Source: an uncultured Candidatus Berkelbacteria bacterium (lineage in GTDB: Bacteria; Patescibacteriota; UBA1384; UBA12157; JAENIV01). Taken from it: a stretch of DNA of 64,000 bases. This document shows positions 2,791 to 63,318 of this stretch, in pieces. Numbering within the stretch: position 1 is the first letter of the stretch; every line of letters starts with the position of its first letter. The notes beneath the pieces are model-generated. The model did no database searches, was not told where the DNA came from, and worked only from the letters and a program-made list of their open reading frames with translations. Position numbers and translations under genes: made by a program. The stretch lies in NCBI GenBank assembly GCA_963698075.1, contig OY969116.1, forward strand, positions 313,010 through 377,009, read 5' to 3'.

Positions 2791-3327
2791 ATTATCAAAG
2801 GGTTAACGATTAAAGAATTAAAAACAAACCAAGAAATTATTTCATCCGAGGTCGTTCTCATTGATGAGAACGGCAAATCCCAAGGAGTCACCAGTCTCGA
2901 CCAAGCGTTACTTCTTGCCTATGAAGCTGGTTTGGATCTGGTTGAAGTCAATATCCATTCCCGTCCACCGGTCGTAAAAATCATGGATTACGGCAAATAT
3001 CGTTACGCCCAAGAAAAGCAAGAATCCAAACAAAAATCGAAATCGAAGGGACCTGAGATAAAGGAAGTTCGCCTTAGTCTTAAGATATCTTCTCATGACT
3101 TGGAATTTAAAACCCGTCAAGCACAAAGGTTTTTAAATGAAGGAGATAAAGTTAAGGTAGCTGTCAAACTTATTGGCCGAGAAATGATGTTTCGTGAGAA
3201 AGCTCGAGAGATGATCGAAAATTTTCGTCGAAATACCAATACCGAATACGAAAGTCCGGTGGAAAGACTGGGTAACCAATTTTCTGCCGTCTTGATAGGA
3301 AAAAAATATGAAGCAAAAGACCGTTAA
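2791..3327 (+). CDS. infC: Translation initiation factor IF-3, ATT start codon
   Basis: In-frame translation from ATT 2791 gives IIKGLTIKELKTNQEIISSEVVLIDENGKSQGVTSLDQALLLAYEAGLDLVEVNIHSRPPVVKIMDYGKYRYAQEK..., a full IF-3. A non-AUG (AUU) start is characteristic of infC. SD is 7 nt upstream. The ORF track shows only the internal Met at 2932. Confidence 0.85.
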   Translation: MIKGLTIKELKTNQEIISSEVVLIDENGKSQGVTSLDQALLLAYEAGLDLVEVNIHSRPPVVKIMDYGKYRYAQEKQESKQKSKSKGPEIKEVRLSLKISSHDLEFKTRQAQRFLNEGDKVKVAVKLIGREMMFREKAREMIENFRRNTNTEYESPVERLGNQFSAVLIGKKYEAKDR

Positions 3328-3502
3328 ATCAGCCAAAAAAAGATTAATGACCACGGGAAGTGGGAAAATATTGCGCCGGAGACTCTCGGCGCAACATTTG
3401 GCTATGGGGAAATCAAAAAGGGTCCGTCGAGCGGCCGGCAAAAAGGTTTTAATTTCCTCGGTTGATTCGCGTAAGATTAAAAAATTAGTCCCCAATAGGT
3501 AA
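3308..3502 (+). CDS. rpmI: 50S ribosomal protein L35
   Basis: 64 aa, basic, MKQKTVKSAKKRLMTTGSGKILRRR; position in the infC-rpmI-rplT operon. Confidence 0.85.
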   Translation: MKQKTVKSAKKRLMTTGSGKILRRRLSAQHLAMGKSKRVRRAAGKKVLISSVDSRKIKKLVPNR

Positions 3503-3508
3503 TAAAAC

Positions 3509-3856
3509 ATGGCCAGAGTAAAACGTGGAGTTACAACCAAAGCAAAACATAAAAGATTATTGGCTAAGACTAAGGGTTTTCGTCATGGCCGCAAAAATTT
3601 AGTGCGGATGGCAAGACAGGCGGATTTGAAAGCTGGTCAATACGCTTATCGCGACCGCCGAGCCAAAAAGCGCGATTTCCGCCGCCTTTGGATTATTCAA
3701 ATCAACGCCGCCTGCCGGCAAAATGATATGAAATATTCGGCCTTTATTAAAGCGCTCAAAGAAAAAAAAATCGACCTTGACCGAAAAGTTCTCGCTGACA
3801 TTGCCGAGAACAATCCTGAAGAATTTACGAATTTAGTCGAAAAAGTCAAATCTTAA
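3509..3856 (+). CDS. rplT: 50S ribosomal protein L20
   Basis: MARVKRGVTTKAKHKRLLAKTKGFRHGRKNLVRMA... is the canonical L20 N-terminus. Confidence 0.9.
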   Translation: MARVKRGVTTKAKHKRLLAKTKGFRHGRKNLVRMARQADLKAGQYAYRDRRAKKRDFRRLWIIQINAACRQNDMKYSAFIKALKEKKIDLDRKVLADIAENNPEEFTNLVEKVKS

Positions 3857-3911
3857 TTAAAAGAAAGATGCCCCGGGGTTCCCAGGGCACCGATGAACTC
3901 GTTATAGTCTC

Positions 3912-5144
3912 TTAGGATGTGGCGATGCTAGCGTGCTCTTCGATACTAGCGTAAGGAAGGAAGGGCTCGACCCACTCCTCGACAGGTCTGGCGTCGAAGA
4001 TATTCCGGCGCAATAGCCGGTTGCCAACGGTTCCGATTGCCTGCTCCATCATCCAGACGGACTGGCGAGTGGCTTCCTCGATCTGCTGGTCAGTCACATA
4101 CTGGTTGATGTAATGGAGCCAGTCGTCCCCGTGGTCTCGCATTGCTGATTCCTTGGCCGCGTAGATCCCCTGTGCCCGGAAGACCGCGCGCTGGATCTCT
4201 TTATTCGCGGGAATCAGGTAATTGATATCACCTCGAGCGTAGGGAACTGCCAGGCGATTTTCATCGACCGTACAGGCGAAATCGCCGAAGCGTCCAGCGG
4301 CTTCCTCGACTTTGCCATCAATGTTGTCGATGCCCGCAGCCCGACAGAACGCGCGTTGATGATGGGCATTGCGCACTAACGTGGCCTGCCAGGCGGTGAA
4401 GGACAGATCGTCGAGATGCATGAAGCGCTGAGCTTCCTCGGGGGTGATGTCCTTATCGCCGGCCGGATCGTACTTTGCGTTGAAACTGATCGCCGGTTCA
4501 TCCATGAGGAATCCAGGGTTCGGAATCCGGTCGAGGTTGGCGTCGGCGAATACCTGCCGCATCTTGGGATCTTCCATGATTCCAGGAATCGCCCGAATCT
4601 CGTCGAGCCCGACGACCGTCTCGTCATAGGTCGCCAACTGCTCATAGCGATTCCCCATGCCCGCGGCGTTGAAGATCCGTTTGAATGTTGAGCTGCCGAG
4701 CGGGAAGCCGAACCGGAAGATGCATTCGGCGTCCGAGACGAAGGTCGTTATATGGCCGGCTGCGATGAGGCGGTGGTAGATGGCGCGGCTCTCGACAGTG
4801 AGAACGTCGCTGAGGATGTATGGGGTGGCCGCCAACCGCATAACCACCTTGTTGCTCTTCTCTCCTCGGTCAAGGAGAGTCCCGACGGTAACGACCTGGT
4901 CGCCATGATCCAGCATGCCGACGTAGGTGCTCCGGAACCCGGCCTTAGCCGCTTCTTCCCAGTAGTATGCCGCGGTCATCGCGAGGACATATCTCTTGCC
5001 ACGTATCTCCTGTGATGGAATCTTCTTCTTGAGATCGGCGACCGAGAAGCGCCCGCTGACGATCCACGGTCCGATGCCCAGGTACCAAAGCCCGGGCGCC
5101 ACGAATTGCGGCCAGGTTGGATCCAAGTCCTTGACGCTACCCAT
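3912..5144 (-). CDS. ATP-dependent purine-pathway-type ligase (PurP/FAICAR-synthetase-like or PurC-like); GC-rich, assignment uncertain
   Basis: 410 aa; segments YVLAMTAAYYWEEAAKAGFRSTYV and GMGNRYEQLATYDE resemble archaeal PurP (TIATLGSH..KGAKxEGFxTV; GARGGRGYFIA). Partial resemblance to SAICAR synthetase also noted. GC about 58% against the low-GC background. Confidence 0.3.
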   Translation of the reverse strand: MGSVKDLDPTWPQFVAPGLWYLGIGPWIVSGRFSVADLKKKIPSQEIRGKRYVLAMTAAYYWEEAAKAGFRSTYVGMLDHGDQVVTVGTLLDRGEKSNKVVMRLAATPYILSDVLTVESRAIYHRLIAAGHITTFVSDAECIFRFGFPLGSSTFKRIFNAAGMGNRYEQLATYDETVVGLDEIRAIPGIMEDPKMRQVFADANLDRIPNPGFLMDEPAISFNAKYDPAGDKDITPEEAQRFMHLDDLSFTAWQATLVRNAHHQRAFCRAAGIDNIDGKVEEAAGRFGDFACTVDENRLAVPYARGDINYLIPANKEIQRAVFRAQGIYAAKESAMRDHGDDWLHYINQYVTDQQIEEATRQSVWMMEQAIGTVGNRLLRRNIFDARPVEEWVEPFLPYASIEEHASIATS

Positions 5145-9017: not shown

Positions 9018-9168
9018 GGAGCGAAGCCAAGTATCCTCAAAAGTGGCTATCGCAGGCCAAAAAGCATGGTTCCGAGGTAATCCGAGGATTTTTGGCCGAG
9101 ATCGCAGGCACCGATTGCGCGCTGGAGCAATCGTAGTGCCGGCATCTTTTGACGGATACTGGCGAGCG
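9018..9168. mobile_element. MITE-like element copy 1 (intergenic), imperfect terminal inverted repeats
   Basis: Ends GAGCGAAGCCAAGTATCCTCAAAAGT ... ACTTTTGACGGATACTGGCGAGCGA are shared with the copy at 16621-16749. Core is GC-rich with internal direct repeats (atcgcaggc x2, tccgagg x2). Confidence 0.5.
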
Positions 9169-9173
9169 ATATT

Positions 9174-10058
9174 ATGAAAGAATGCTACCTCTATCAAAAA
9201 TCAGGCGATTACACCGTTTGTGCTACTTGCAACCACCGCTGTCGGATTGCGCCTTATAAACGCGGTATTTGTGGAGTAAGAGAGAATCAGCAAGGAAAAT
9301 TACATCTTTTAGTCTATGGTCGAATTATTGCTGAAAATATTGACCCAATCGAAAAAAAGCCCTTGTATCATTTTATGCCCGGAACTTCCTCTCTTTCTAT
9401 CGCCACTGTTGGCTGTAATTTTCGTTGTCTTTGGTGCCAAAACTGGGATATCGCCCAATGCACTAAAGACAATGCCGACCGCACCGAAATTACCAGTAAA
9501 ATGGGCATTGAAATGGAACCGGAACAAATAGTTGAAGACGCCAAAAAATACGGCTGTCCCTCAATTTCTTATACTTATACTGAACCGACAATTTTTCTCG
9601 AATTTGCCTTAGATACCATGAAACTGGCAAAAAAAGCGGGTCTAAAAAATGTTTGGGTCTCCAACGGCTATATGACAACGGAGACACTTGATTTAATCAC
9701 GCCATATCTGGATGCGATTAATGTAGATTTAAAGGGATTTAGCGAAGAAAATTATTTAAAATATTCCGGGGCCAAGTTACAGCCGGTCCTAGATAATATC
9801 CGCGAGATCTATAAACGCAAGATCCATCTTGAAGTCACGACTTTGATCGTCCCAGGGGTTAATGATGACGAAAAACAACTAAATGATATCGCCCAATTTC
9901 TCGCCTCGATATCAAAAAACATTCCCTGGCATATTTCCCGGTTTTTCCCAGCCTACAAAATGCCCGATACACCGGTAACGCCCATTGAGACCTTAGAACT
10001 GGCCGAAAAACTTGGCAAAAAAGCTGGTTTAAAGTATATTCATTTAGGAAATATTTAA
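9174..10058 (+). CDS. AmmeMemoRadiSam system radical SAM enzyme
   Basis: CNFRCLWC CxxxCxxC motif; PFL-activase-like architecture; immediately followed by Memo-like and AMMECR1 genes. Confidence 0.7.
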   Translation: MKECYLYQKSGDYTVCATCNHRCRIAPYKRGICGVRENQQGKLHLLVYGRIIAENIDPIEKKPLYHFMPGTSSLSIATVGCNFRCLWCQNWDIAQCTKDNADRTEITSKMGIEMEPEQIVEDAKKYGCPSISYTYTEPTIFLEFALDTMKLAKKAGLKNVWVSNGYMTTETLDLITPYLDAINVDLKGFSEENYLKYSGAKLQPVLDNIREIYKRKIHLEVTTLIVPGVNDDEKQLNDIAQFLASISKNIPWHISRFFPAYKMPDTPVTPIETLELAEKLGKKAGLKYIHLGNI

Positions 10059-10066
10059 GGAATAAA

Positions 10067-10885
10067 ATGTCTCTTAATTTTGCTGCCATCACCCCTCATC
10101 CCCCAATAATTATCCCCGGAATCGGTTCTCCGAAAGATTTAGAAAAAGTTGCCTTAACCGTCCAGGCGATGCGTAAATTAGCCAATTCCTTCCGCGAAGC
10201 CGAAATTGAAACATTACTGGTTATATCCCCCCATACTTTAGTCTATCCCGACCGTTTCAATATCGGCGGCATGAAAAAACTTTTTGGCACTTTTGCCCCT
10301 TTCGGGGCACCCGATGTAATGCTGGAATTTCCGAACGACATTGACCTTGCCCGAGAAATTGACGCTCAGGCTAATCAACAAGACATTAAAACCCTACTCT
10401 ATGACAATAGCGGCGAATTTTTTGAACTTGACCATGGAATTATGGTGCCTTTGTATTATCTGACTATGCAACAGGAATCCGCTCTGAAGGTCATCCCTCT
10501 CGCCTATTCCAATTTAGACCGCGCCAAACATTTTGCTTTTGGCCAGATTATTGGCGAGGTTATCAAGAAAAACCCGACGAGGATTGGCATCGTTGCCTCC
10601 GGCGATCTTTCCCATCGTCTAATCCAAGGCGCACCAGGTGGATACTCCGAGGCCGGTAAAAAATTCGATCAGAAATTGGTCGACGATTTAAAAGCTGGCA
10701 ATATTCAAGAAGTCATGTTCTATGACGAAGAATTTGTTGATGATGCTGGCGAATGCGGCTACCGCTCAATCTTGATTTTGTTGGGTATTTTAGATGGACT
10801 TTCTCTTAAGCCCGAGATAGTATCTTATGAAGGTCCTTTTGGCGTCGGTTATTTAGTCGCCAATTACCCACTCAAAAATGACTAA
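10067..10885 (+). CDS. AmmeMemoRadiSam system protein B (Memo-like / class III extradiol dioxygenase fold)
   Basis: TPHPPIIIPG, ISPHT, DHGIMVPL, IVASGDLSHRL parallel Memo-family APHAGY..GPSHH..EHSIEM..SSDFCH positions. Confidence 0.6.
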   Translation: MSLNFAAITPHPPIIIPGIGSPKDLEKVALTVQAMRKLANSFREAEIETLLVISPHTLVYPDRFNIGGMKKLFGTFAPFGAPDVMLEFPNDIDLAREIDAQANQQDIKTLLYDNSGEFFELDHGIMVPLYYLTMQQESALKVIPLAYSNLDRAKHFAFGQIIGEVIKKNPTRIGIVASGDLSHRLIQGAPGGYSEAGKKFDQKLVDDLKAGNIQEVMFYDEEFVDDAGECGYRSILILLGILDGLSLKPEIVSYEGPFGVGYLVANYPLKND

Positions 10886-11408
10886 AATGAACGCTTGTGT
10901 TGATTTGGCTCAAAAAACAATCAAAGACTATTTAATAGATGGTCGAATTTTTGACGCCGATTTGGCCCCAGAGACTTTAAGAAAAAATCGCGCTGGTTGT
11001 TTCGTCTCTTTGCACTTAAAAGATAATAAGGAATTACGCGGATGTATTGGCACGATTTTGCCAACCTGCAAAAATCTCGCTGGTGAAATTATTAACAATG
11101 CTATTTCTGCCTGTCGGGATCCGAGATTTACGCCGGTAACTAAAGAAGAATTGGATAACTTGGATATTTCGGTCGATGTTTTAAGCGATCCAGAACCGAT
11201 TTCTTCGGTTAAATCCCTTGAACCAAAAAAATATGGCGTGATTGTCAAAGCCAAAGACGGCCGTACCGGATTGCTCCTTCCTGATTTAGAAGGAATAGAT
11301 GACGCCGCCTATCAAGTGGCCATTGCTAAACAGAAGGCTGGGATATTACCAGACGAATCGGTATATCTTTACCGTTTTACTGTCGAGAGACATAAGGAAA
11401 TAACTTAA
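10878..11408 (+). CDS. AmmeMemoRadiSam system protein A (AMMECR1 domain)
   Basis: AGCFVSLH...LRGCIGT hallmark of AMMECR1. Confidence 0.75.
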   Translation: MTKMNACVDLAQKTIKDYLIDGRIFDADLAPETLRKNRAGCFVSLHLKDNKELRGCIGTILPTCKNLAGEIINNAISACRDPRFTPVTKEELDNLDISVDVLSDPEPISSVKSLEPKKYGVIVKAKDGRTGLLLPDLEGIDDAAYQVAIAKQKAGILPDESVYLYRFTVERHKEIT

Positions 11409-12398: not shown

Positions 12399-12755
12399 AT
12401 GCAAATAGCTCAAATTGTTCCCAAAGTGAGAACTCAAGATGAGGGTGTTTTTGATTATGCGATACCACCGGCATTATTGCCAATGATAAAAGTTGGTCTC
12501 CTAACCGAAATCCCCTTTCACGGTCGAAAAATTGAAGGGATAATAGTTAAATTAAAATCCAAATCGCATGCGGTACAAATTTCAAATCTCAAATCTATTT
12601 CAAATATTATCGATCCAGTCCCTGCTGTTGATGATACCCATATCAAACTTGCCCAATGGATGACGAATTATTATTTGGAGCCGTTAGGAAAAACTCTCTT
12701 TGAATTTATCGTCCCGCCGGCCAAAAGAACCATTAAAAAACTGGCCCATGAATAA
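12399..12755 (+). CDS. priA: Primosomal protein N' N-terminal (3'-DNA-binding) domain, as a separate ORF
   Basis: 118 aa; stop TAA overlaps ATG of the next ORF (ATGAATAA at 12748-12755); PriA-type N-terminus. Confidence 0.55.
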   Translation: MQIAQIVPKVRTQDEGVFDYAIPPALLPMIKVGLLTEIPFHGRKIEGIIVKLKSKSHAVQISNLKSISNIIDPVPAVDDTHIKLAQWMTNYYLEPLGKTLFEFIVPPAKRTIKKLAHE

Positions 12756-14190
12756 AAAATATTTAATTATTGGCGACTTTCAAACGAGATTAAAGTTCTA
12801 TTTGGCGGCTATCCAAAAAACGCTGACTAAAAATCATTCAATAATTATTTTAGTCCCTGATTTATCGCTGATTTCATATTTTACTCGGTATTTCAAAAAT
12901 CCTTATTCAATTCTGCACGCCGGCCTAAAAAAAACCGAGCGTTGGCTCGAATGGAACCGTATTCGCGAAGGAAAAGTAAAAATTATCATTGGTTCACAAT
13001 CAGCTCTTTTTGCGCCGGTAAAAAATTTGGGCTTAATTATCATTGATCAAGAAGAAAATGAAACCTATAAAAACGACCGATCACCAAGATTCCACGCTGT
13101 CCGGGTGGCCGAAGAATTATCTCGCCTCGCCAGGACCAATTTAGTTCTGGGAAGCATCTTGCCGCGTGTCGAAACCTATCATCAAGCGATTAAAGGCAAA
13201 TATCAAATCCTCAAAAAATCGGCCTTAGCTTCCAAGAATATTACCATTGTCGATATGAATTCGGAAAAATATGTTATTTCAAATACCTTGGAAAAAGAAA
13301 TTGAAAATACATTAATTCAAAAACAAAAAATATTATTAGTTCTCAATCGCAAAGGCGAAGGGACAAAATTTTCTTGTACCGATTGCGGTTGGATTGCTCT
13401 TTGTGAAAAATGCGGCCTGCCCTTGATTCCTCAAAGAGCGGAAAATGTTTGTTATCGCTGTGAGAAATCATCTCCCCCGCCTTTATCCTGTCCAAAATGC
13501 CGCGGCGTTCATCTGAAACCAATGGGTTTGGGCACGGCCCGCTTAAAAAAATTTGTAACCGATTTATTCCCGAAGGCAAAAATCATCCAGGTCGAAAAGG
13601 AAAGCGACGGCCGTCTTGTTAGATACAACTGGGATATTGCCATCACGACAATTTACGGGCTCAAATTCAGCTGGCCGAAAATTGGTTTGGTTGGCATAAT
13701 CGACGCTGACCAAGGTTTGAATTTTCCTGATTTTTCGAGCCCTCAAAAAACTTTCCAAAATTTATATAAATTTTTACGAATAGGCGAGAGGGGAATAGTC
13801 CAAACTCATTTGCCAGAAAACTATTGTTTACGGGCTCTGGCAGGCTTAAACTATGAAAGATTTTTCTTAGATGAAATCACCCAAAGACGAAAATTTGCCT
13901 TTCCGCCGTTTAATCGCCTTGTTCGCCTTTTATTCAAAAATGCTGATGAAGAAAAAGCCAAAAAAGAAACAGTGAGAATATACCAATCACTAATCACCAA
14001 TCACTTTCCACTAACCACTATCTCCAGACCACATCCCGCTTTCATTTCCAAAGAACGCGGGAAATATCGCTATCAGATTGTAATAAAAATCTCAAGCCTA
14101 AGATCTAAGTTCTCAAATCAGTTAAAAGATACTTTACGAACTCTTCCCAAGGGCTGGATTATTGACGTCGATCCCGTGAATTTGCTATGA
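12748..14190 (+). CDS. priA: PriA helicase-core-like protein with degenerate motifs plus Cys4 zinc module
   Basis: LIIIDQEENETYKNDRSPRFHAVRVA aligns to E. coli PriA motif II region (IVIDEEHDSSYKQ..RYHARD) with DEEH changed to DQEE. No Walker A GKT near the start. CTDCGW..CEKCG..CYRCE..CPKCRG zinc-binding region retained. Confidence 0.65.
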   Translation: MNKKYLIIGDFQTRLKFYLAAIQKTLTKNHSIIILVPDLSLISYFTRYFKNPYSILHAGLKKTERWLEWNRIREGKVKIIIGSQSALFAPVKNLGLIIIDQEENETYKNDRSPRFHAVRVAEELSRLARTNLVLGSILPRVETYHQAIKGKYQILKKSALASKNITIVDMNSEKYVISNTLEKEIENTLIQKQKILLVLNRKGEGTKFSCTDCGWIALCEKCGLPLIPQRAENVCYRCEKSSPPPLSCPKCRGVHLKPMGLGTARLKKFVTDLFPKAKIIQVEKESDGRLVRYNWDIAITTIYGLKFSWPKIGLVGIIDADQGLNFPDFSSPQKTFQNLYKFLRIGERGIVQTHLPENYCLRALAGLNYERFFLDEITQRRKFAFPPFNRLVRLLFKNADEEKAKKETVRIYQSLITNHFPLTTISRPHPAFISKERGKYRYQIVIKISSLRSKFSNQLKDTLRTLPKGWIIDVDPVNLL

Positions 14191-14756: not shown

Positions 14757-15926
14757 ATGAGAAAATTAAAGATCGGCATTTTTACCGAATGTTATCATCC
14801 GGTACTCAATGGCGTGGTGGTTTCGATTGAAACTTTTCGTCAAGCCCTTGAAAAACGTGGGTTTGAGTTTTTCATTTTCACCACTCAATGTCCGGGTTAT
14901 CACGAAAAAAATGCCCGCGTCAGGCGATTTAACTCAATGATCCCCTTCCCGTCCAAAGGCGGACGTTATCCGATTGCCTGGCCGCAAATCGCCAGATTGC
15001 AAGCCCCACGCATCGCGCCATCAAATCTTGACCTCATTCACAGCCAGCATCTTTTGGGTATTGGTCATTTAGGTCTAAAAGTTGGCAGAATCCTAAAAAT
15101 TCCGACCATCCTCACTTACCACACCCTCTTGGCTGAATACACCCATTACGCGCCCGGAATAGGGGCAATTTTAAAATGGTATCTAATCCATGCCAGCCGA
15201 GAAATTTCCAACCAATACGATCGAATTGTCACCCCTTCACCATCGATGAAAAGGGTTTTACGTTCCTATGGCGTCAGACGTCCAATTGAACCCATCCCTA
15301 CCGGCGTTAATATTGCTGATTTTCAAAATCATTATTCAAAAGAGGAAATCAGAAAAAAATGGCAAATACCCGAGCACCAAAAAATCCTTCTTTACGTCAG
15401 CCGAATCGCCAAAGAAAAAAATCTTGACTTTCTCTTTGAATCTATTGAACGAATAGCTACCAAGCGTGATGATTTTCATCTTTTGATGGTTGGTGGCGGA
15501 CCAGAGCTTAAATACTATCAAGCAAAAATCCACGAGTGGCATCTGAAACCATTCGTCACTTTTACTGGAATGCAACCCAAAAAAGAAGCTAACCGTTTTT
15601 ATGGCGCGGCGGATATCTTTGTCTTCCCCTCAATCACCGAAACCCAAGGAATTGTGGTCACCGAAGCCATGGCTGCCGGTGTGCCGGCAGTGGCTGTCAA
15701 TCAAATGGGACCAAGCGATATTATCCAAGATGGGATTGACGGCTTTCTTGTGCCCTTGAAAACGGATGAATTTACTGCTAAAATAGAACTTCTGCTTGAC
15801 GATGATAACTTAAGAACCAGGATGGGCCGCGAAGCTCGCCAGAACGCTCGTAAGTTCTCAGTCGAAGCTTGCGCCCAGAAAATGGAAAAAATATATGAAA
15901 GAACCATCGATCATCACCGTTCCTAA
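14757..15926 (+). CDS. GT4 family glycosyltransferase
   Basis: ETQGIVVTEAMAAGVPAVAVN (EX7E-type motif) and GT-B layout; SD aaggatggg 5 nt before ATG 14757. Confidence 0.7.
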   Translation: MRKLKIGIFTECYHPVLNGVVVSIETFRQALEKRGFEFFIFTTQCPGYHEKNARVRRFNSMIPFPSKGGRYPIAWPQIARLQAPRIAPSNLDLIHSQHLLGIGHLGLKVGRILKIPTILTYHTLLAEYTHYAPGIGAILKWYLIHASREISNQYDRIVTPSPSMKRVLRSYGVRRPIEPIPTGVNIADFQNHYSKEEIRKKWQIPEHQKILLYVSRIAKEKNLDFLFESIERIATKRDDFHLLMVGGGPELKYYQAKIHEWHLKPFVTFTGMQPKKEANRFYGAADIFVFPSITETQGIVVTEAMAAGVPAVAVNQMGPSDIIQDGIDGFLVPLKTDEFTAKIELLLDDDNLRTRMGREARQNARKFSVEACAQKMEKIYERTIDHHRS

Positions 15927-17433
15927 TGAGAAACTTTCCGAGGCGACAAGTAAAGTCACCTCTTTTGTGCAAGATTCTAATGAGCTTAAAAAACAAATCC
16001 GAAATATGGTGGCAATCCTGCGCCAAGAAGGCGGTATTGGTCTGGCTGCTAACCAATTGGGTTATGATAATCAAGTCCTAGCTATTGAATTTAAGGAATC
16101 TGATCAAAAGTCTTCTAAAAAGTCCTCGAAAAAAAATGCGGAAAAGACGGAAATCCCTTTGACAATTTTTGTAAATCCCGAAATTGTCGAATACGGGAAA
16201 ACAATTGAATGCTTTGAAGAGGGATGTCTTTCGGTGCCTAAAATCGAACTTGAAGTTGAGCGGCCGACCCAAATTAAAATTAAATATCAAAACGAAAAAG
16301 GGAAAAAAATCAAAGCCGCCCCCAAAGGTTTGCTCGCCCGCATCCTTCAGCATGAAATTGATCATCTGGGTGGCATCATCTTTACCGAACGTGTCAGAGA
16401 GCAGTTTTTTCAAAAATACCCAGAGTTGAAAAAACTAAAAATCGCATTTTTCGGTAGCGGAGAGTTTGGGGCTATCATTTTAGAAGGTTTAATCTTACTT
16501 GGGCTGAATCTCGATATCTATACGGAAAAATCAAAACCGGCCGGCCGCAGCCAAGTAACTCGCGCGACGCCCGTGGCAGAAGTGGCTAAAAAGTTTGGAA
16601 AAGATTATTTTGAAGTAGAAGCGAGCCAAGTATCCTCAAAAGTAAATCGCGGAGGCGAGCCGCACGGACAAGGGCGAGCCGAGCGTTTAGACCCGATTTC
16701 CTCGCAGGGGAAATCGAGGTCGGTACTTTTGACGGATGCTGGCGAGCGACCATTTGATTCTCTCGTCTGTGTTGATTTTGGTCAAAAAATCCCCGAATCG
16801 ATATTAAAACAAGCCAAAATTGCCGCCCTCAATATTCATCCCTCGCTTTTACCAAAATATATCGGCCCGACACCAATTCAAACGGCGATACTTAATGGCG
16901 ATAAGAAAACTGGCGTGTCAATTATTCAAATGACCGATAAAATTGATCAAGGCCCGCTTTATTCCCAAATTGAAACGGAAATTCTCGAAAACGATACCAC
17001 ACCCCTTCTCCACGACCGCCTCGCCACTTTGGGTCTAAAATTATTAATCAAAACCTTACCCAAAATCGTCCGTGGCGAAATCGAAACTGTCAGTCAGGAT
17101 TTATCCAAAACGATAAGGACGCGCAAATTCACTAAAGCCAATGGTGAAATTGACTGGCGAAAATCCCCCAAAAAAATTGATGCCAAAATCCGCGCCTTTT
17201 CCCCTTGGCCGGGTTCGTATACCCGCCTGCCAGCGCCTGAAGCCGCAGGCAATGGCGGGCAGGCTTTCGTCGATAATAAACGCCTAATTATCCACAAAGC
17301 TCATATTAAAAAAGACAAATTAGTTCTCGACATAGTTCAGAGTGAGGGCAAAAAACCAATGAAATTTTCTGAATTTTTACGCGGCTTTCACGGTCCAAAA
17401 CCGGAGTGGTTTAGGAAAGTATTATTGACATAA
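15895..17433 (+). CDS. fmt: Peptide deformylase - methionyl-tRNA formyltransferase fusion (single 512-aa ORF)
   Basis: N-terminal GIGLAANQLG, EGCLSVP, QHEIDHLGG (PDF motifs). C-terminal IAFFGSGEFG ... NIHPSLLPKYIGPTPIQ ... WRK..FSPWPG (Fmt). No stop or start between the two parts. Overlaps the upstream GT4 gene by 32 nt. Confidence 0.75.
   Translation: MKEPSIITVPNEKLSEATSKVTSFVQDSNELKKQIRNMVAILRQEGGIGLAANQLGYDNQVLAIEFKESDQKSSKKSSKKNAEKTEIPLTIFVNPEIVEYGKTIECFEEGCLSVPKIELEVERPTQIKIKYQNEKGKKIKAAPKGLLARILQHEIDHLGGIIFTERVREQFFQKYPELKKLKIAFFGSGEFGAIILEGLILLGLNLDIYTEKSKPAGRSQVTRATPVAEVAKKFGKDYFEVEASQVSSKVNRGGEPHGQGRAERLDPISSQGKSRSVLLTDAGERPFDSLVCVDFGQKIPESILKQAKIAALNIHPSLLPKYIGPTPIQTAILNGDKKTGVSIIQMTDKIDQGPLYSQIETEILENDTTPLLHDRLATLGLKLLIKTLPKIVRGEIETVSQDLSKTIRTRKFTKANGEIDWRKSPKKIDAKIRAFSPWPGSYTRLPAPEAAGNGGQAFVDNKRLIIHKAHIKKDKLVLDIVQSEGKKPMKFSEFLRGFHGPKPEWFRKVLLT
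16621..16749. mobile_element. MITE-like element copy 2, 129 bp inserted in-frame within fmt
   Basis: GCGAGCCAAGTATCCTCAAAAGT ... ACTTTTGACGGATGCTGGCGAGCGA. Adds 43 codons (ASQVSSKVNRGGEPHGQGRAERLDPISSQGKSRSVLLTDAGER) between DYFEVE and PFDSLVCVDFG, the position where E. coli Fmt has a short linker. Confidence 0.5.
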
Positions 17434-17461
17434 GATAAAAAGTCCTGTAAAATTTAAATAT

Positions 17462-18019
17462 ATGTTAGCTATCAGACTTCGCCGGCAAGGCAAAAAGGGA
17501 CAACCAAGTTATCGCATTGTCGTGGCCGACCAAAAGGCCCCGATTTTGGGTAAATATATTGAAATGCTCGGCCATTACAATCCTTTCACCAAGGCCATCG
17601 TTTTGGATAACCAAAAAGCCCTGGGCTGGCTCAAAAAAGGTGCCAAACCCTCAAATACAGTGGCGAAATTAATGCAAAAGCAGGGGCTTAAACACAATTC
17701 AATTGTGATCAAAAAATTCCGCGCGGTTTCTAAAGCCGAACTGGAAAAACAAAAAGCCGCGGAAGAAACCAAAAGAGCCGAAGAAGCGGCCAAAAAAGAA
17801 GCTGCCAAGGCGGCCTTCGAAGAACAAGTTGAGAAAGAAAAAGCGGCTGAACCCAAGGAAGATAAACTCCAGGCAATGGCCGAAGAATCAATTAAAGAAG
17901 TGAAAGAAGAAGTCAAACCAGCTGAGAAAAGAAAAAGAAGCGAGCGAAGCGAAGTCCGTCGAAGCCGAAGGCGAAGTGCGGAAAAAGCCGAAAGAAGAAA
18001 AAGGATCTTGATTTATTGA
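17462..18019 (+). CDS. rpsP: 30S ribosomal protein S16 with ~100-aa K/A/E-rich C-terminal extension
   Basis: MLAIRLRRQGKKGQPSYRIVVAD..GHYNP is the S16 core; low-complexity tail. Confidence 0.8.
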   Translation: MLAIRLRRQGKKGQPSYRIVVADQKAPILGKYIEMLGHYNPFTKAIVLDNQKALGWLKKGAKPSNTVAKLMQKQGLKHNSIVIKKFRAVSKAELEKQKAAEETKRAEEAAKKEAAKAAFEEQVEKEKAAEPKEDKLQAMAEESIKEVKEEVKPAEKRKRSERSEVRRSRRRSAEKAERRKRILIY

Positions 18020-38062: not shown

Positions 38063-38365
38063 GGGGCTATCAAGCTTCGACGGGAAACAATTTGACAATT
38101 TCAAGTCGAGAAGGCTACGAACCTCGCAAAATCCGTGGCAAACACTAAACGCTAACAAGCAATTAGTACCTGCCTTAGCCTAATAGGCTAATGCACGTCG
38201 TTCCATTTGTTGGTTGACCGAATGGAAACGGCGCCAACCGTCAACCTCTGGGGATGGAAGATCGTCCTGGTACTATCCTTGAAACAAACGAGGGCAAATG
38301 CTAAGCTTGTCAACGATTATCAAAGAGTTTTTCGGACGGGAGTGCGATTCTCCCTAGCTCCACCA
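38063..38365 (+). ncRNA. ssrA: tmRNA (ssrA), short form with encoded CCA
   Basis: 5' GGGGCUAUCAAGCUUCGACGGG and 3' GGACGGGAGUGCGAUUCUCCCUAGCUCCACCA match tmRNA tRNA-like-domain consensus. Internal frame gct aac aag caa tta gta cct gcc tta gcc TAA TAG (tag ANKQLVPALA). Confidence 0.8.
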
Positions 38366-43415: not shown

Positions 43416-44411
43416 ATGAAGCACAGCTCGGTCGTACTGATGGTTCTGGCGTTGGTCTTGTTGTGTATGATGGCCTGCAGCGCGGTGATGGCGTACGTTC
43501 CAGACTACCCCCCTATCTCTGAATCGCTGGCAGGAAGAACCCTCGCCCTCGCGGCGGTGCCCGCGGGCTCGATCGCACCCGTGCCGCAGGTCTTCGTCTG
43601 GCAGTATGGACGCCAGCCGGTCCAGATCACCAACTCCCGATGGGCCGTTACCCATCCGCGCTGGTCACCCAACGGCCACCTCCTTGCCGTCAACGACGGC
43701 AACCAGGTGGCGACGATCAACCTCGCCAACGGCAGAGAGACCATCGTCGTACCCGGTCCCCGCAAGTTCCTGGGAGACTGGTCATCGGATGGCCGTTTCC
43801 TCTGCTACACGGCGTTGACGTGGGTCCCGGAGTGGGACGACTTCTTCTTCCCGCGCGTCTGGTACGTGGACGTTCACACCAAGAAGAACTTCCAGATCCC
43901 GGACCATGGTGTGGACCAGCGCAATCCCACCTGGGGGGCCGACGGCACCATCGCCTACGAAGAGTGGGAGGGGGTCCCGCCGGTGATCAAGGGCTACAAC
44001 CCTTACACCGGCGAAGAGAAGCCCCTGGTGCCGATCGATGAGAAGTTTCATGGAGCGGAGAATCCGGTCTGGACCCCCGAGGGCGATCTTTACTACAACA
44101 ACTGGCCGCCCTACACCGACACCAACAAGATCTTCTTGGTTACAAACGAGGAGATCCCGGGCCGCGGCGACCCCGTCACCCACAACCTATGGGAATGGGG
44201 TGAGGACACGCCGGAACTGGCGACTGCCGAGGGTGACCTGTTCTACTACTCCCTGGGTCAGAACCAGTACACCACCTACCACTTCTTCCGCGACCGTTTC
44301 GGCACGCTGTGGGGCCTTGATCACATCATCGGCCTCGACTACTGGTGCGGATCAATCACCATCACCCAGAGCCAACCGATCCACCGCCGTTACTGGCGAT
44401 GGCGCCGATAA
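43416..44411 (+). CDS. Secreted (possible lipoprotein) TolB-like beta-propeller protein, GC-rich
   Basis: Signal peptide with LLCMMAC. Repeated PD40/WD40-like blades (PRWSPNGHLLA, DWSSDGRFLCY, PTWGADGTIAYEE, PVWTPEGDLYY). GC about 60%. Confidence 0.5.
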   Translation: MKHSSVVLMVLALVLLCMMACSAVMAYVPDYPPISESLAGRTLALAAVPAGSIAPVPQVFVWQYGRQPVQITNSRWAVTHPRWSPNGHLLAVNDGNQVATINLANGRETIVVPGPRKFLGDWSSDGRFLCYTALTWVPEWDDFFFPRVWYVDVHTKKNFQIPDHGVDQRNPTWGADGTIAYEEWEGVPPVIKGYNPYTGEEKPLVPIDEKFHGAENPVWTPEGDLYYNNWPPYTDTNKIFLVTNEEIPGRGDPVTHNLWEWGEDTPELATAEGDLFYYSLGQNQYTTYHFFRDRFGTLWGLDHIIGLDYWCGSITITQSQPIHRRYWRWRR

Positions 44412-49913: not shown

Positions 49914-49989
49914 TGGTGCCCTCGGCAGGATTTGAACCCGCGACCTCTGGCACCGGAGGCCAGCGTTCTGTCCACTGAACTACGAGGGC
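49914..49989 (-). tRNA. tRNA-Arg (anticodon CCG) with CCA
   Basis: rc gccctcgtagttcagtggacagaacg-ctggc-ctccggt-gccag-aggtc-gcggg-ttcaaat-cctgc-cgagggc-a-cca. Confidence 0.85.
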
Positions 49990-49990
49990 C

Positions 49991-50066
49991 TGGCGCCCTC
50001 GGGCCGAGTCGAACGGCCAACCTCTCCCTTAGGACGGGATCGCTCTATCCATTGAGCTACGAGGGC
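49991..50066 (-). tRNA. tRNA-Arg (anticodon CCT) with CCA
   Basis: rc gccctcgtagctcaatggatagagcg-atccc-gtcctaa-gggag-...-ggccg-ttcgact-cggcc-cgagggc-g-cca; 1-nt spacer to the previous tRNA. Confidence 0.8.
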
Positions 50067-50171
50067 TTTAGATAGATTTTATCATTTTTGTAAGATATAA
50101 TAAACTTGTTTAAAGAATCACTCCTTAGGGAGAAGTTTTTTTCAAAGAGTAAATTTGAAAATAAAGTTACT

Positions 50172-50246
50172 CGGGGACTGGCCTAATGGTAAGGCGCAGC
50201 GTTCGGGACGCTGAGATTCCGGGTTCGACTCCCGGGTCCCCGACCA
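50172..50246 (+). tRNA. tRNA-Pro (anticodon CGG) with CCA
   Basis: cggggac-tg-gcct-aatggta-aggc-g-cagcg-ttcggga-cgctg-agat-tccgg-gttcgac-cccgg-gtccccg-a-cca. Confidence 0.85.
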
Positions 50247-56363: not shown

Positions 56364-56441
56364 TGGTAGCGCCGACGGGATTCGAACCCGTGATCTCCAG
56401 GATGAAAACCTGGTATCCTAAACCAACTAGACGACGGCGCC
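56364..56441 (-). tRNA. tRNA-Glu (anticodon TTC) with CCA
   Basis: rc ggcgccg...ccagg-ttttcat-cctgg...acggg-ttcgaat-cccgt-cggcgct-a-cca. Its 5' 25 nt are duplicated at 56516-56540. Confidence 0.85.
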
Positions 56442-56861
56442 ATAATGCTTATTTGTCAACTAACGATATATTTCTGGAGCTTTGTTCCAGTGGATGAAAA
56501 CCGCCGTGTACGGCCCTAAACCAACTAGACGACGGCGCCATATTACCATTTTATATGACAATAAGCCTGAAGTAAAGGAGAAACGGTTTTGCTGCAACAA
56601 AAATAACCCCTCGCATAAAGCTGTGGGTTACACCCTTACTTCCTTGTCGCTTCTGGCTTGCCACCCGAAGCTCCAAAGGAACGAAAGGTGGAGAGACATT
56701 CGGGTCTAGAACCTTTTGGCTCTTTTTTATTAATGAAGCAATTTCCTTTTTTCATAAAGGGGTTTAATTTCTTCAGTTAATTGGTTAGTCACTGCATTCC
56801 CTTCATTCTTTTCTCTGTGGTCTCGATCTACAGCCGTGTATGAGATTTGCCACTGTATTCG

Positions 56862-57422
56862 TTATTTAGTCTGATTTAGCGCATCTTTAATATTGCCCCA
56901 GTATTCTTTGGTCGTATCGAAGAACGGTACATTCAGCTTCTTGCAAACCTCCTCTAAACGTTTACTTTCTGATATCAAAAACTCGAACTCCTCAAGTAAT
57001 TCCTCGTTGCTCATTTCATTAGTCCAGTTGGTTACGTCAAATTCGCGGCATTTTGCCAGTCGTTCTTGTGGTGTTGTATTTGGATAACCAAATACAAAAT
57101 ATTGTAAGTGAGGATACTTCGCATACAAATCCTCAAGCGGCAGAAGGAAGCCTTCAATCACAAAGCCATCTACATCCATTCCGTCGATCATTCGGAAGAC
57201 AAAAGGTCTAAACTTTTGACACACCTCGATGTGTTCTTTGAGGTTGGGCGCTCTATGTGTAATACCTAGCTGCGGAAACACATCCTCAAATCCCTCGATA
57301 ATCGGGTCAATACAAATATGCTGAACAAAATATTTCTTCACCAATTCGTGAGAAAAAGTAGACTTACCGGCAGTGGGTACGCCAGTGACTATAAATTGAT
57401 GAAATTTCTGTTCTTGTCCCAT
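56862..57422 (-). CDS. P-loop NTPase/kinase-like protein
   Basis: IVTGVPTAGKST Walker A; 186 aa; sits between the two tRNA-fragment scars. Confidence 0.4.
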   Translation of the reverse strand: MGQEQKFHQFIVTGVPTAGKSTFSHELVKKYFVQHICIDPIIEGFEDVFPQLGITHRAPNLKEHIEVCQKFRPFVFRMIDGMDVDGFVIEGFLLPLEDLYAKYPHLQYFVFGYPNTTPQERLAKCREFDVTNWTNEMSNEELLEEFEFLISESKRLEEVCKKLNVPFFDTTKEYWGNIKDALNQTK

Positions 57423-57498
57423 AACTTGAATCCCTTTGTTCTTGTATCTTAGAGTCTTTTTTGCTTCTCCTACCTTTTACGCGGTCCCAAGCTTCTAA

Positions 57499-57540
57499 TT
57501 GGAGGGCTCGGTGGGATTCGAAGGTCGGTGTCCAACCGAC
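57499..57540 (-). repeat. Duplicated 3' end (24 nt) of tRNA-Lys fused to GGTCGGTGTCCAACCGAC motif
   Basis: ttggagggctcggtgggattcgaa is identical to 57685-57708 of tRNA-Lys, followed by the 18-nt hairpin motif instead of the T-stem. Confidence 0.5.
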
Positions 57541-57685
57541 GTCTCGATTCGTGCTTGTATTGGTTTATCTTAATTTAATGGCTCAATCCATCTGAGCCGT
57601 TCAATTTCTATCTCGTCGGCTATCATTGTGGGTTCTCACCCAACCGACCCAAGCCAGAAACCCCGATAAACCAGGGGTTCTGGCT

Positions 57686-57760
57686 TGGAGGGCTCGGTGG
57701 GATTCGAACCCACGACAAGTTGCTTAAGAGGCAACTGCTCTGCCACTGAGCTACGAGCCC
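57686..57760 (-). tRNA. tRNA-Lys (anticodon CTT) with CCA
   Basis: rc gggctcg-ta-gctc-agtggca-gagc-a-gttgc-ctcttaa-gcaac-ttgtc-gtggg-ttcgaat-cccac-cgagccc-t-cca. Confidence 0.85.
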
Positions 57761-57761
57761 A

Positions 57762-57834
57762 CGCCCTCGGCGTGATTCGAACACGCAACCTAAGGGTTAG
57801 AAACCCTTCGCTCTATCCATTAAGCTACGAGGGC
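57762..57834 (-). tRNA. tRNA-Arg (anticodon TCT), no CCA
   Basis: rc gccctcg-ta-gctt-aatggata-gagc-g-aaggg-tttctaa-ccctt-aggtt-gcgtg-ttcgaat-cacgc-cgagggc-g. Confidence 0.8.
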
Positions 57835-58024: not shown

Positions 58025-58756
58025 CTACCACCAGTCGACGGCCTGGGATACTTCGACCTCCTCCCCCTCATCGATACTAAAATGGACCGGCAGGGTAAGG
58101 GCTGCGTAGGGCCCCCATCCCAGCGACACCGTATAGCTGCCGGCAAAGAGCTCGGGCCAAACGGCCTGGCCCGAGGAGTTGGTGTAATGATACTCCTCCA
58201 CATGGAGGAGTCCCCCTAGTGTCAATCCATCCAACCAAACCAGGACGCCCGGCGCGGGAGCGCCAGACTCATCGGTCACTGTTGCGGTCACCCTCGAGTA
58301 CTCGCACACATCGAGGGCAACGACGTGGATTTCGCCGGGGGTGCCGGCGAAGTCGATGGTCGCCGTATCTCCATCCTGGCGAAGTCCATCGACCTGCATA
58401 AAGGTCCACCAGTCAGAGGGAAGCTGGAAGATAACCCTCCATTTCCCTCTCGACGCCCTTACCTCAACCGGCGTCGAATACCTCTTGGTCTTTCCGTCGG
58501 GGTTGATGACCCACACCCGCCAGGCGAGCCATTGCTCGCCTAGATCTAGATCCAGGACGAAGTCCAGGTCCTTGTCATCCAAGACTCGGACCTGAAGCTG
58601 AGGCCAAGACGGTCCTCCCTTCTTGAGGGGAACCGCCGGCCCTGCCATCGCACTTGAGGCGATGGCGCAGAGCAACATCGACACTACCAGGAACTGCAAT
58701 ACAGCACCAACCCTTCGTCTCGACATCTTCGGACCCCTCCGTGCCAGTATCCCCAA
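58025..58756 (-). CDS. Secreted GC-rich protein with Ig/prealbumin-like (CarboxypepD_reg-like) C-terminal domain
   Basis: Signal peptide (AVLQFLVVSMLLCAIASSAMA). SGAPAPGVLVWLDG...TNSSGQAVWPELFAGSYTVSL. GC about 65%. Confidence 0.4.
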   Translation of the reverse strand: MGILARRGPKMSRRRVGAVLQFLVVSMLLCAIASSAMAGPAVPLKKGGPSWPQLQVRVLDDKDLDFVLDLDLGEQWLAWRVWVINPDGKTKRYSTPVEVRASRGKWRVIFQLPSDWWTFMQVDGLRQDGDTATIDFAGTPGEIHVVALDVCEYSRVTATVTDESGAPAPGVLVWLDGLTLGGLLHVEEYHYTNSSGQAVWPELFAGSYTVSLGWGPYAALTLPVHFSIDEGEEVEVSQAVDWW

Positions 58757-60743: not shown

Positions 60744-61820
60744 TTATCCGACGCTTCCCAGATCGGCGTTGCGCAAGTCTTCGGCGGCATGCTCAGGTGT
60801 GCGGGGATTGATGTAGGCGCCCGAGCCCTTCTCGAGGGCCGCCAGAATTGCTTCGGTGATTGGTTCGATCTGACAATGCCAATGATAGGTCTCTAGCTCA
60901 GTGTCGGTGGGAGGGGCAGTGTGGAAGTAGAGGTTGTAGTCAGGGTCGTTGAGTGTTACCCGAATCCTCTTCAGCGTCTCCTGTAGCAACAAGGCGAATT
61001 CCGTCAGAAGGTCGGCTCCTTGAGGATGGGTCGAGATGTTGGCAAAGTAGCTCTGGTGATACCGCGGTCCCACAATAACCTGATAAGGCGTCCTTGAGGT
61101 GAAGGGACACCAAGCCATGAAGTTTTCGGTGACATTGATCAACCGTTCCTTGGCAAGCAGTTCCCAATCTCTCTCCTCACAGTAGAAACAGGAGCGATTC
61201 AGGTCATAATAGTGCCGGGCGCCTGCCAACTCATGGTAGATCCGCGCTGGCAATGTCGGTAGCGCCACCAACTGGCTGTGGGGATGGGGTTGGCTGGCGC
61301 CAGCGAGCGGTCCATAATTCTTGAAGAGAAAGATGCAGTGGATGTTCCGTTTACTTCCGATTGCCAAGGTCATCTCCCGCCACATGTGCAAGACTTCGCG
61401 GAAGTAGAAGGGGTCGAGAGTCTCAAGAGCAACATCGTGTCGAGGTGATTCGATGATGACATAGTGGAAGCCGAAAGCCGGCAATACCGTAAACGGTCCA
61501 CGCTTCTCCACCACCAGAATCTCTGAAGGAATCGAGGCGTTCACTGCCGGCGCTAGGTTCGGTACGACTCTCACCCACCAGCCAGGATTGTCTGCCTTCG
61601 TCTCTTTAGCACGATAGGAACTTACTTCCTTCGGGGTCTGGCTCTCCCGACCCTCTTCGAAAGAACACTCTTCGCCGCTGACGAGGCGCGGGTTGAACCT
61701 GGACCAATCGCGCTCTTTCTGCCGCCGTAACTTCTCCAACGGCTTCTCCCGGTCTGAACCGATGATCACCAGCGTCCCCGAAATCGGGTTCCTTCTTAGC
61801 TCTTCCACACGACCTGGCAT
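60744..61820 (-). CDS. galT: Galactose-1-phosphate uridylyltransferase-like (GalT/HIT superfamily) protein, GC-rich
   Basis: SQPHPHSQL matches the GalT HPH active-site motif. CFYCE..C/H zinc-site-like residues. ATG 61820 with aggagg SD. The track ORF's upstream 71 residues read through tRNA-His and are artifactual. Confidence 0.55.
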   Translation of the reverse strand: MPGRVEELRRNPISGTLVIIGSDREKPLEKLRRQKERDWSRFNPRLVSGEECSFEEGRESQTPKEVSSYRAKETKADNPGWWVRVVPNLAPAVNASIPSEILVVEKRGPFTVLPAFGFHYVIIESPRHDVALETLDPFYFREVLHMWREMTLAIGSKRNIHCIFLFKNYGPLAGASQPHPHSQLVALPTLPARIYHELAGARHYYDLNRSCFYCEERDWELLAKERLINVTENFMAWCPFTSRTPYQVIVGPRYHQSYFANISTHPQGADLLTEFALLLQETLKRIRVTLNDPDYNLYFHTAPPTDTELETYHWHCQIEPITEAILAALEKGSGAYINPRTPEHAAEDLRNADLGSVG

Positions 61821-61924: not shown

Positions 61925-62000
61925 TGGGGTGGCTGACGCGATTCGAACGCGCGACCGCTCGGGCCACATCCGAGTGCTCTACCACTGAGCTACAGCCACC
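61925..62000 (-). tRNA. tRNA-His (anticodon GTG) with encoded G-1 and CCA
   Basis: rc g-gtggctg-ta-gctc-agtggta-gagc-a-ctcgg-atgtggc-ccgag-cggtc-gcgcg-ttcgaat-cgcgt-cagccac-c-cca. Confidence 0.85.
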
Positions 62001-62186
62001 ATATATAAAATGAATCTGCCTTTTGAAGGCCAAATCTCAAATTCTTGCTGATAAATCAATAAATCCCTAAACTACTACTTTTTACGGGACGCCAACCACC
62101 AAATCAGGGCAACGACGACGACGGCAATGACTACCCACCAATACCAAACCATTAAAATCTCCTTTCATTATCATTATACCATTAAT

Positions 62187-62261
62187 TGGTGCCCCCGGGT
62201 GGATTCGAACCACCAACTCTAGGTCCGAAGCCTAGTGTTTTATCCGTTATACTACGGGGGC
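62187..62261 (-). tRNA. tRNA-Arg (anticodon TCG) with CCA
   Basis: rc gcccccg-ta-gtat-aacggata-aaac-a-ctagg-cttcgga-cctag-agtt-ggtgg-ttcgaat-ccacc-cgggggc-a-cca. Confidence 0.8.
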
Positions 62262-62518
62262 AGATTGAACTTTAAACTATTTTTTAATTGCTCTTTCAAT
62301 CTTACTCGACCTGGTCCACTTTTTAAATATCTTTCTCTTCCCTTGGCATCATCTCGATTTAGGTAAGCTTCAAAATAGAGTAACTTATATGGTCTATGTT
62401 GATTGGTATATCTTGAAAATCCTTTATTATGGTCGGAGAATCTCCTCTTTATGTCAGATGTTTCACCGATATACCAACTTTTGTCTTTTAAACTTATTAA
62501 AAGATAAACGTAATGCAT
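62252..62518 (-). CDS. GIY-YIG nuclease-domain protein (YhbQ/UPF0213-like)
   Basis: YVYLLISLKDKSWYIGETSDIKRRFSDHN. Last 3 codons and stop overlap the tRNA-Arg(TCG) 5' end. Confidence 0.55.
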   Translation of the reverse strand: MHYVYLLISLKDKSWYIGETSDIKRRFSDHNKGFSRYTNQHRPYKLLYFEAYLNRDDAKGRERYLKSGPGRVRLKEQLKNSLKFNLPP

Positions 62519-62601
62519 TATTGGCCTCGTATATCCTCTTTGCTTCGCAAATTAGGAAACGCGGCTCATCCCGTTTCCTGTCATAGACAGGATATACGGG
62601 A

Positions 62602-62675
62602 TGGAGCGGGTAGCGGGAGTCGAACCCGCATCTTCACCTTGGAAGGGTGACATAATGCCGCTATACGATACCCGC
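62602..62675 (-). tRNA. tRNA-Gly (anticodon TCC) with CCA
   Basis: rc gcgggtatcgtatagcggcattatg-tcacc-cttccaa-ggtga-agat-gcggg-ttcgact-cccgc-tacccgc-t-cca, near-identical in layout to E. coli tRNA-Gly(UCC). Confidence 0.85.
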
Positions 62676-62707
62676 AAAATTATAAATTTACTCTCCAAGA
62701 ATTCCCA

Positions 62708-63238: not shown

Positions 63239-63242
63239 TTAT

Positions 63243-63318
63243 TGGTCGGGGACCCGAGGCTCGAACTCGGAACCTCCGCCTCCCAAAGGCGGCGCTCTAC
63301 CAATTGAGCCAGTCCCCG
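63243..63318 (-). tRNA. tRNA-Pro (anticodon TGG) with CCA
   Basis: rc cggggac-tg-gctc-aattggta-gagc-g-ccgcc-tttggga-ggcgg-aggtt-ccgag-ttcgagc-ctcgg-gtccccg-a-cca. Confidence 0.85.

Follow-up and report, generated by a model that had tools for sequence, protein, structure and literature searches.

A peptide deformylase-methionyl-tRNA formyltransferase fusion gene in Berkelbacteria and the in-frame palindromes inserted in it

We present a gene of an uncultured Candidatus Berkelbacteria bacterium in which peptide deformylase (PDF, the product of def) and methionyl-tRNA(fMet) formyltransferase (Fmt) are joined in one continuous polypeptide. The gene lies in a 64,000-nucleotide (nt) stretch of contig OY969116.1, hereafter the window, where the list of open reading frames (ORFs) has it as a single ORF of 512 amino acids (aa) at 15895-17433 (+), running from ATG to TAA; an identical protein (P0001), encoded on a contig of 929,420 bp, is already available from NCBI/ENA. 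Comparison with relatives confirms that this is one genuine gene with both domains complete. At a probability of roughly 82%, we regard it as coding for a genuine bifunctional enzyme, which would have emerged when def lost its stop codon in a def-fmt operon and would enforce the co-expression of Fmt and PDF.

Three Pfam profiles match the ORF above their gathering scores, namely PF01327 (Pep_deformylase, aa 6-169, E = 1.2e-43), PF00551 (Formyl_trans_N, aa 182-387, 3e-29) and PF02911 (Formyl_trans_C, aa 412-498, 3.5e-12). A sequence-only reading of the window had claimed a single ORF that holds the three PDF motifs and runs without a stop into a complete Fmt, and both parts of that claim stand: GIGLAANQLG is found at aa 47-56 (16033-16062, +), EGCLSVP at aa 109-115 (16219-16239, +) and QHEIDHLGG at aa 152-160 (16348-16374, +), after which the chain passes through ...KYPELKKLKIAFFGSGEFG... 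into the formyltransferase domains. Position 15895 is the earliest start codon in frame after the previous in-frame stop, and the N-terminus that it gives, MKEPSIITVPN, lines up with those of homologues. At 512 aa against a typical ~452, the protein is the longest member of its family, the ~60 extra residues being due to three inserts, a Lys/Ser-rich segment and two palindromic elements (A and B), which are described below.

Where def and fmt are separate genes, which is their usual state, the gap between them is often just a few bases, small enough for one error to join them, and the sequence-only reading had itself raised a stop or frameshift hidden near 16430, missed in sequencing or assembly, as the way in which two ordinary genes might have been mistaken for one. 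We consider the probability of such an artefact to be close to nil. A search of 5.8 billion proteins, grouped at 90% identity, recovered more than 100 further clusters with all three Pfam domains, of ~435-496 aa and from 75% down to 35% identity. They come from independent assemblies of different samples and pipelines, the ORF is continuous in all of them, and the junction FTER..QFF.K.PE.KNLKI.FFGSG is conserved as amino acids; it is this continuous architecture, shared by so many independent homologues together with the conserved junction, that excludes the artefact. The DNA of five relatives (loci L001, L003, L112, L113 and L114), read directly, agrees in showing a continuous gene, so that a comparison with relatives for separate def and fmt genes found them fused as well. 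The named members belong to Candidatus Berkelbacteria or to a "Patescibacteria group bacterium" and bear the UniRef name "Multifunctional fusion protein", an example being KKQ17519.1 / UniRef100_A0A0G0HZR4 of Berkelbacteria GW2011_GWA1_36_9.

An exhaustive search of 1.84 billion representatives at 50% identity extended this picture: about 50 of the best 150 representatives inspected are at least 400 aa long and have both halves, with the Fmt part beginning near residue 230-250. Named examples among these representatives come from Candidatus Nealsonbacteria (PIP21713.1) and Candidatus Fermentithermobacillaceae (MBP8613512.1), the latter a Firmicute. A scan with our 22-sequence alignment of the family (A1), in which each species was represented by one genome, listed 80 distant loci (27-39% identity) from many phyla, with no Berkelbacteria among them. 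In ~52 of the 80 loci listed, def lies directly upstream of a separate fmt, as had been claimed for bacteria in general; the loci listed from the Candidate Phyla Radiation (CPR) that keep the two genes separate belong to Saccharibacteria, Paceibacterota, Doudnabacteria and Daviesbacteria. The only fused gene among the 80, L005 of Fermentithermobacillaceae, has a different, longer and acidic linker, and is therefore likely to be an independent fusion event, which means that fusions arose more than once. The claim that the fusion is unusual stands for bacteria at large (one of the 80 loci listed); in the Berkelbacteria lineage it is the norm. As judged from these searches, the Def-Fmt fusion is rare in bacteria at large, of multiple origin, and the standard state in the Berkelbacteria lineage.

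The PDF domain (aa 1-178; 15895-16428, +) is type-1B-like, with its C-terminal helix kept, and scores over the curated cut-offs of PF01327 (148.9 vs 22.8 bits), TIGR00079 (127.7 vs 103.95 bits, an equivalog cut-off) and NF001159 (139 vs 125 bits). Its first motif, GIGLAANQ at aa 47-54, fits the pattern G-phi-G-phi-AAxQ; the second, EGCLS at aa 109-113, fits EGC(L)S with C111 as the metal ligand; and the third, the invariant QHEIDH at aa 152-157, fits QHExDH, with H153 and H157 as ligands and E154 as the catalytic Glu. Alignment A1 shows G47, G49, Q54, E109, G110, C111, S113, Q152, H153, E154, D156 and H157 to be invariant. The same alignment marks, between motifs 1 and 2, the low-complexity Lys/Ser-rich insert (ESDQKSSKKSSKKNAEKTE; 16096-16152, +), which the window protein has in common only with its nearest relatives, P0002 and P0003. 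Disorder is predicted for it, with a predicted local distance difference test score (pLDDT) below 50 at aa 70-83 of an AlphaFold2 model.

In the Fmt half, the N-terminal formyltransferase domain (aa 182-387; 16438-17055, +) has TIGR00460 as its best NCBIfam match and was aligned to the E. coli Fmt structures 1FMT/2FMT. Its catalytic motif NIHPSLLPKYIG (16831-16866, +) supplies N313 and H315, the counterparts of E. coli N108 and H110, while D351 (16945-16947) aligns with the catalytic D146 of 1FMT, and R218 with the tRNA-recognition residue R42 in the Fmt-specific loop 1 of the same protein (TEKSKPAGRSQ aligned to E. coli TQPDRPAGRGK, with G217 and R218 invariant in A1). Across the 22 aligned members H315, S317-Y322, D351 and R218 are invariant and N313 nearly so, and the segment HPSLLPKY with its SLLP motif is invariant throughout. 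The C-terminal tRNA-binding domain (aa 412-498; 17128-17388, +) scores 46.8 bits on PF02911 against a cut-off of 21.1. By these alignments, all catalytic residues are intact in both halves.

At the junction (16375-16455, +) the C-terminal helix of PDF (IIFTERVREQFFQKYPELKK) passes directly into strand beta-1 of Fmt (LKIAFFGSG), with no linker in either the alignment or the AlphaFold2 model, and the peptide ...HEIDHL.GI.FTER...QF..K.PE.KN-LKI.FFGSG... is kept in the 22-sequence alignment. BLASTP against E. coli PDF matched aa 6-182 to residues 6-166 of 169, so the type-1B C-terminal helix is retained; it is ~4 residues shorter than that of E. coli, its final KLK already opening Fmt strand beta-1. 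The model (mean pLDDT 83.8, predicted template modelling score (pTM) 0.84) has helices at 163-174 and 176-180 followed at once by a strand at 182-187, and its only stretches of low confidence are aa 70-83, 247-283 (247-271, 274-278 and 280-283) and 447-453. Domain by domain, it finds its matches among Fmt structures (4IQF, 2FMT) and, apart from these, among PDF structures; no solved structure covering both turned up in structure searches. These features bear on the alternative that one chain is made and separate enzymes nonetheless result, by proteolytic cleavage or by internal initiation of Fmt. Formally, Fmt could be initiated internally at a TTG codon (Leu178) that immediately precedes its start; however, no Shine-Dalgarno-like sequence precedes it, and the 22 aligned members have no conserved internal start or Met at the junction, the residues there being L, I, F, Y, T, A, N or M. 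With no linker, and with helix 163-180 abutting strand 182-187 in a model of pTM 0.84, we hold separate products to be quite unlikely.

Returning to a bifunctional enzyme, we infer from the conserved residues that both activities reside in the window protein. The N-terminal metallo-peptide deformylase would take the N-formyl group off nascent chains, and the C-terminal Met-tRNA(fMet) formyltransferase would add the formyl group to the initiator tRNA. The probable origin is an ordinary def-fmt operon in which the def stop codon was lost, with the PDF helix then flowing into Fmt strand beta-1. The two active sites would operate independently of each other, because the Fmt product, fMet-tRNA, is not a PDF substrate; as the reactions are not consecutive on one substrate, no channelling is expected, and the benefit would be regulatory and genetic. 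The fusion would set a 1:1 stoichiometry and enforce co-expression and co-inheritance, and, as PDF comes first in the chain, any truncation, mutation or translation failure that removes PDF would remove Fmt too. A lethal state of "formylation without deformylation" might thereby be avoided, which we propose as the likely selective rationale of the fusion. In support of such interdependence, Mazel et al. in 1994 reportedly found def to be dispensable only with fmt inactive.

Certain considerations weigh against this proposal. The fail-safe rationale is an argument only. The Fmt half scores 181-183 bits on TIGR00460, under the equivalog cut-off of 201.5 bits, and still 182.6 bits with the inserts removed. 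The C-terminal helix of E. coli PDF serves as its ribosome anchor, and here a 330-aa domain is attached to it. Finally, Exiguobacterium genomes with a Def-Fmt fusion also hold a second PDF (PMC12690207), and the genome of the window protein was scanned over 64 kb only. The low score, the second PDF of Exiguobacterium and the inspection of 64 kb of a ~929-kb contig would all suit a different account, in which the fusion is real and one half is a non-catalytic remnant, a stand-alone PDF or Fmt elsewhere doing the work. Nevertheless, neither half shows any variation in its metal-binding or catalytic residues across the family, even at 35% identity, the 64-kb window has no further def or fmt, and fusions of the same family exceed the TIGR00460 cut-off (P0043 with 208.4 bits and P0119 with 255.5); TIGR00460 is moreover the best family for the Fmt half, the next formyltransferase family scoring more than 50 bits lower. 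We therefore give the remnant account little chance. That both activities can coexist in one chain follows from the Exiguobacterium fusion, which gave an E. coli Δdef-fmt strain normal growth (Mol Biol Evol 2025, PMC12690207).

The fused gene has also received palindromic DNA in frame. Element A (16618-16755, +) is a GC-rich palindromic repeat of 138 nt (46 codons) that lies in a loop on the surface of the Fmt N-domain; its GC content is 57%, that of the window 42%. The insert at the same site in L001 (8715-8849) is 95% identical to it, the host genes being 72% identical, and closer relatives lack it. A second copy in the window (9019-9172, +) is intergenic, with identical termini and a differing interior, and stops 2 nt short of the start codon of a radical-SAM gene (9174). 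When metagenomes were scanned for an 18-mer of element A, 28 loci came up, most of which are chance matches, the true copies being only those of L086, L090, L103 and L106, plus a partial one in L092. The copies elsewhere are again intergenic (L086 2434-2569, -; L090 1616-1750; L103 5854-5990 and 9686-9840; L106), and those from metagenomes lie in either orientation. The family thus consists of GC-rich palindromes of ~135-155 nt with conserved inverted-repeat termini, in which GCCAAGTATCCTCAAAAGT pairs with CTTTTGACGGATRCTGGC (fold z = -4.8); seven aligned copies share a fold with a long closing stem and two internal hairpins, and show compensatory double changes in 15 of 44 pairs. Element B (RLPAPEAAGNGGQA; 17224-17265, +) is an in-frame hairpin of exactly 42 nt (14 codons; 71% GC; z = -3.9) in the Fmt C-domain. 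It is 100% identical in the def-fmt gene of L003 (2043-2084), where the flanking codons differ, and has a clean empty site in L001; no copy other than these two was found among the sequences compared. In the structural model the inserts map to loops of low pLDDT, the element-A region lying below 50, and the palindromic inserts could, when translated, give rise to disordered surface loops in an essential enzyme of translation.

Other inserts occupy the same loop in relatives: the closest (P0002, 75% identity; L112 6712-6831) has a differing palindrome of 120 nt and 64% GC at the element-A site, and P0010 and P0053 have long unrelated inserts there. This loop of Fmt looks like an insertion hot spot. 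Elsewhere in the window, a further GC-rich palindrome (2732-2793; closing stem ATCCTCC...GGAGGAT with two internal hairpins) lies 36 nt past the end of ORF 1947-2696; its architecture is like that of element A, its sequence is unrelated, and it has no second copy in the window. The inserts had no match in Rfam and therefore belong to none of the known RNA families, ribozymes and riboswitches included. A role for element A as a regulator in the 5' untranslated region was rejected, since its intergenic copies lie either way round relative to the neighboring genes. Comparison of filled and empty sites gave no clear target-site duplication, and no partner transposase was found for either element, the only one seen being a Y1 transposase of the IS200/IS605 type in L112 (385-1047, -). 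This gene has the same hairpin (TCTAACCATTTTCAGCCCACTTCGTAAGTGGGT...) on both sides, adjoins Memo and is absent from the window; as its flanking hairpins are unrelated to elements A and B and the window holds no homologue, a RAYT/Y1 transposase was rejected as the mobilizer.

The closest known parallels are the Rickettsia palindromic elements (RPEs) and intragenic miniature inverted-repeat transposable elements, which likewise measure ~40-150 nt, have inverted-repeat termini, occur in multiple copies (as shown here for element A), and lie both between genes and in frame within housekeeping genes, where they encode surface loops (PMC10969869). Elements A and B differ from RPEs in sequence and host lineage and in that neither a target-site duplication nor a transposase was identified; further, unlike in RPEs, the compensatory changes in the internal hairpins also fit a function as structured RNA or DNA. 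Our literature search found no description of RPE-like "selfish DNA inside proteins" in CPR bacteria. As a tentative synthesis, for which the odds are somewhat below even, the def-fmt gene of Berkelbacteria might be a recurrent landing site for RPE-like in-frame palindromes, or the hairpins might act as RNA or DNA; separately, the fusion could be the sole Def and Fmt of the cell, with Fmt brought to the exit site of the ribosome by the PDF anchor helix.

The gene lies in the order radical SAM, Memo, AMMECR1, priA, a small ORF, GT4 glycosyltransferase, def-fmt, rpsP, KH and trmD, which is kept in relatives. The upstream GT4 gene (14757-15926, +) lies in an ORF open from 14532 and probably starts with MRKLK at 14757; from there it encodes 389 aa, the length that relatives have as well. 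The 32-nt overlap with def-fmt noted in the sequence-only reading (15895-15926, +) is real, the GT4 ORF ending at 15926, and recurs as 32 nt in L001, 32 in L003, 35 in L112, 4 in L113 and 38 in L114; L115, of a distant fusion clade, is without GT4 and has a gap of 83 nt. Ahead of the def-fmt ATG there is only a weak GGA, 8-11 nt upstream. Translational coupling to GT4, as that reading had suggested, is plausible, and the conserved overlap is compatible with it. Downstream, rpsP (ribosomal protein S16; 17462-18019, +) follows after 28 nt, in a def-fmt-rpsP-KH-trmD order kept in relatives. A promoter and terminator scan around def-fmt gave no enrichment over shuffled sequences. One promoter-like site close to consensus (17425-17453, TTGACA-17-TAAAAT, matching at 11 of 12 positions) overlaps the stop codon of def-fmt, shortly before rpsP (17462), and a weaker one (15756-15784, TTGAAA-17-TAAAAT with a TG) lies within GT4, ~110 nt upstream of the def-fmt start.

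Farther upstream, the AmmeMemoRadiSam-type trio spans 9174-11408 (radical SAM 9174-10058, Memo/LigB 10067-10885 and AMMECR1 10878-11408), and also stands upstream of priA in Berkelbacteria relatives. The priA gene itself is divided between two ORFs that overlap and differ in frame, 12399-12755 (118 aa, the 3'-DNA-binding part) and 12700-14190 (496 aa, the helicase/C-terminal part), the latter apparently without canonical Walker A (LIIGDFQTRLKFY) and Walker B (IIIDQEENETYK) motifs. In the 75% relative L112 priA is divided likewise (2497-2862 and 2855-4327), and PriA is a single ORF in L113 (605 aa) and L114 (556 aa). The window further holds a tmRNA gene (38063-38365, 114.5 bits) and 12 tRNA genes (at 6984, 40195, 49917-50243, 56367-57834 and 61928-63318), with several grouped around 49.9-50.2 kb and 56-63 kb. 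Stretches of ~63-66% GC at 43507-44408, 58080-58684 and 60748-61727, within a window of 42% GC, may be foreign or unusually composed genes.

The fusion can be read as a "Rosetta stone" confirming that putting the formyl group on the initiator Met and taking it off again form one functional unit, a link that a whole CPR lineage would have made obligatory. If the fusion is indeed the only PDF and Fmt of these cells, it raises the questions of how a PDF with a 330-residue load on its anchoring helix reaches the exit tunnel, and of whether Fmt is tethered to the ribosome. The in-frame palindromes offer a tractable case of repeats colonizing essential genes in ultra-small genomes. Neither the fusion nor the inserts overturn the current understanding.

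This kind of fusion is already known from Exiguobacterium (2025, PMC12690207), and the CPR proteins have been public since 2015 under automatically assigned fusion-protein names; our literature search found no paper discussing the CPR/Berkelbacteria Def-Fmt fusion. Like the present gene, that of Exiguobacterium is one uninterrupted coding sequence with PDF N-terminal and Fmt C-terminal (PMC12690207); unlike it, it belongs to the Bacillales rather than to CPR/Berkelbacteria, and presumably arose independently. The paper on it deals with four reference genomes of one genus (PMC12690207), whereas here the fusion is lineage-wide, with more than 100 sequence clusters. The Berkelbacteria fusions in the databases share the three-domain architecture, the junction and the GT4-def-fmt synteny with the window gene at 45-75% identity, and the Fermentithermobacillaceae fusion (MBP8613512.1) departs from it in its longer, acidic and different linker. 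Taken singly, the two halves resemble their E. coli counterparts: PDF (type 1B; 1BS4) in the alignment of residues 6-166 of 169 and the presence of the three motifs, though its C-terminal helix is here ~4 residues shorter and continues into Fmt; and Fmt (1FMT/2FMT) in the shared N108, H110, D146 and R42 loop. With the canonical E. coli def-fmt operon (Meinnel & Blanquet 1993, Mazel et al. 1994, via PMC12690207) the fusion shares the order of def and then fmt, both enzymes and their functional interdependence, and it keeps the wider priA...def-fmt neighborhood, an order that is widespread and also seen in L004. It differs from that operon in the GT4 gene interposed between priA and def-fmt and, above all, in that the two polypeptides of E. 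coli, each with its own stop and start, have here become one through the loss of a stop.

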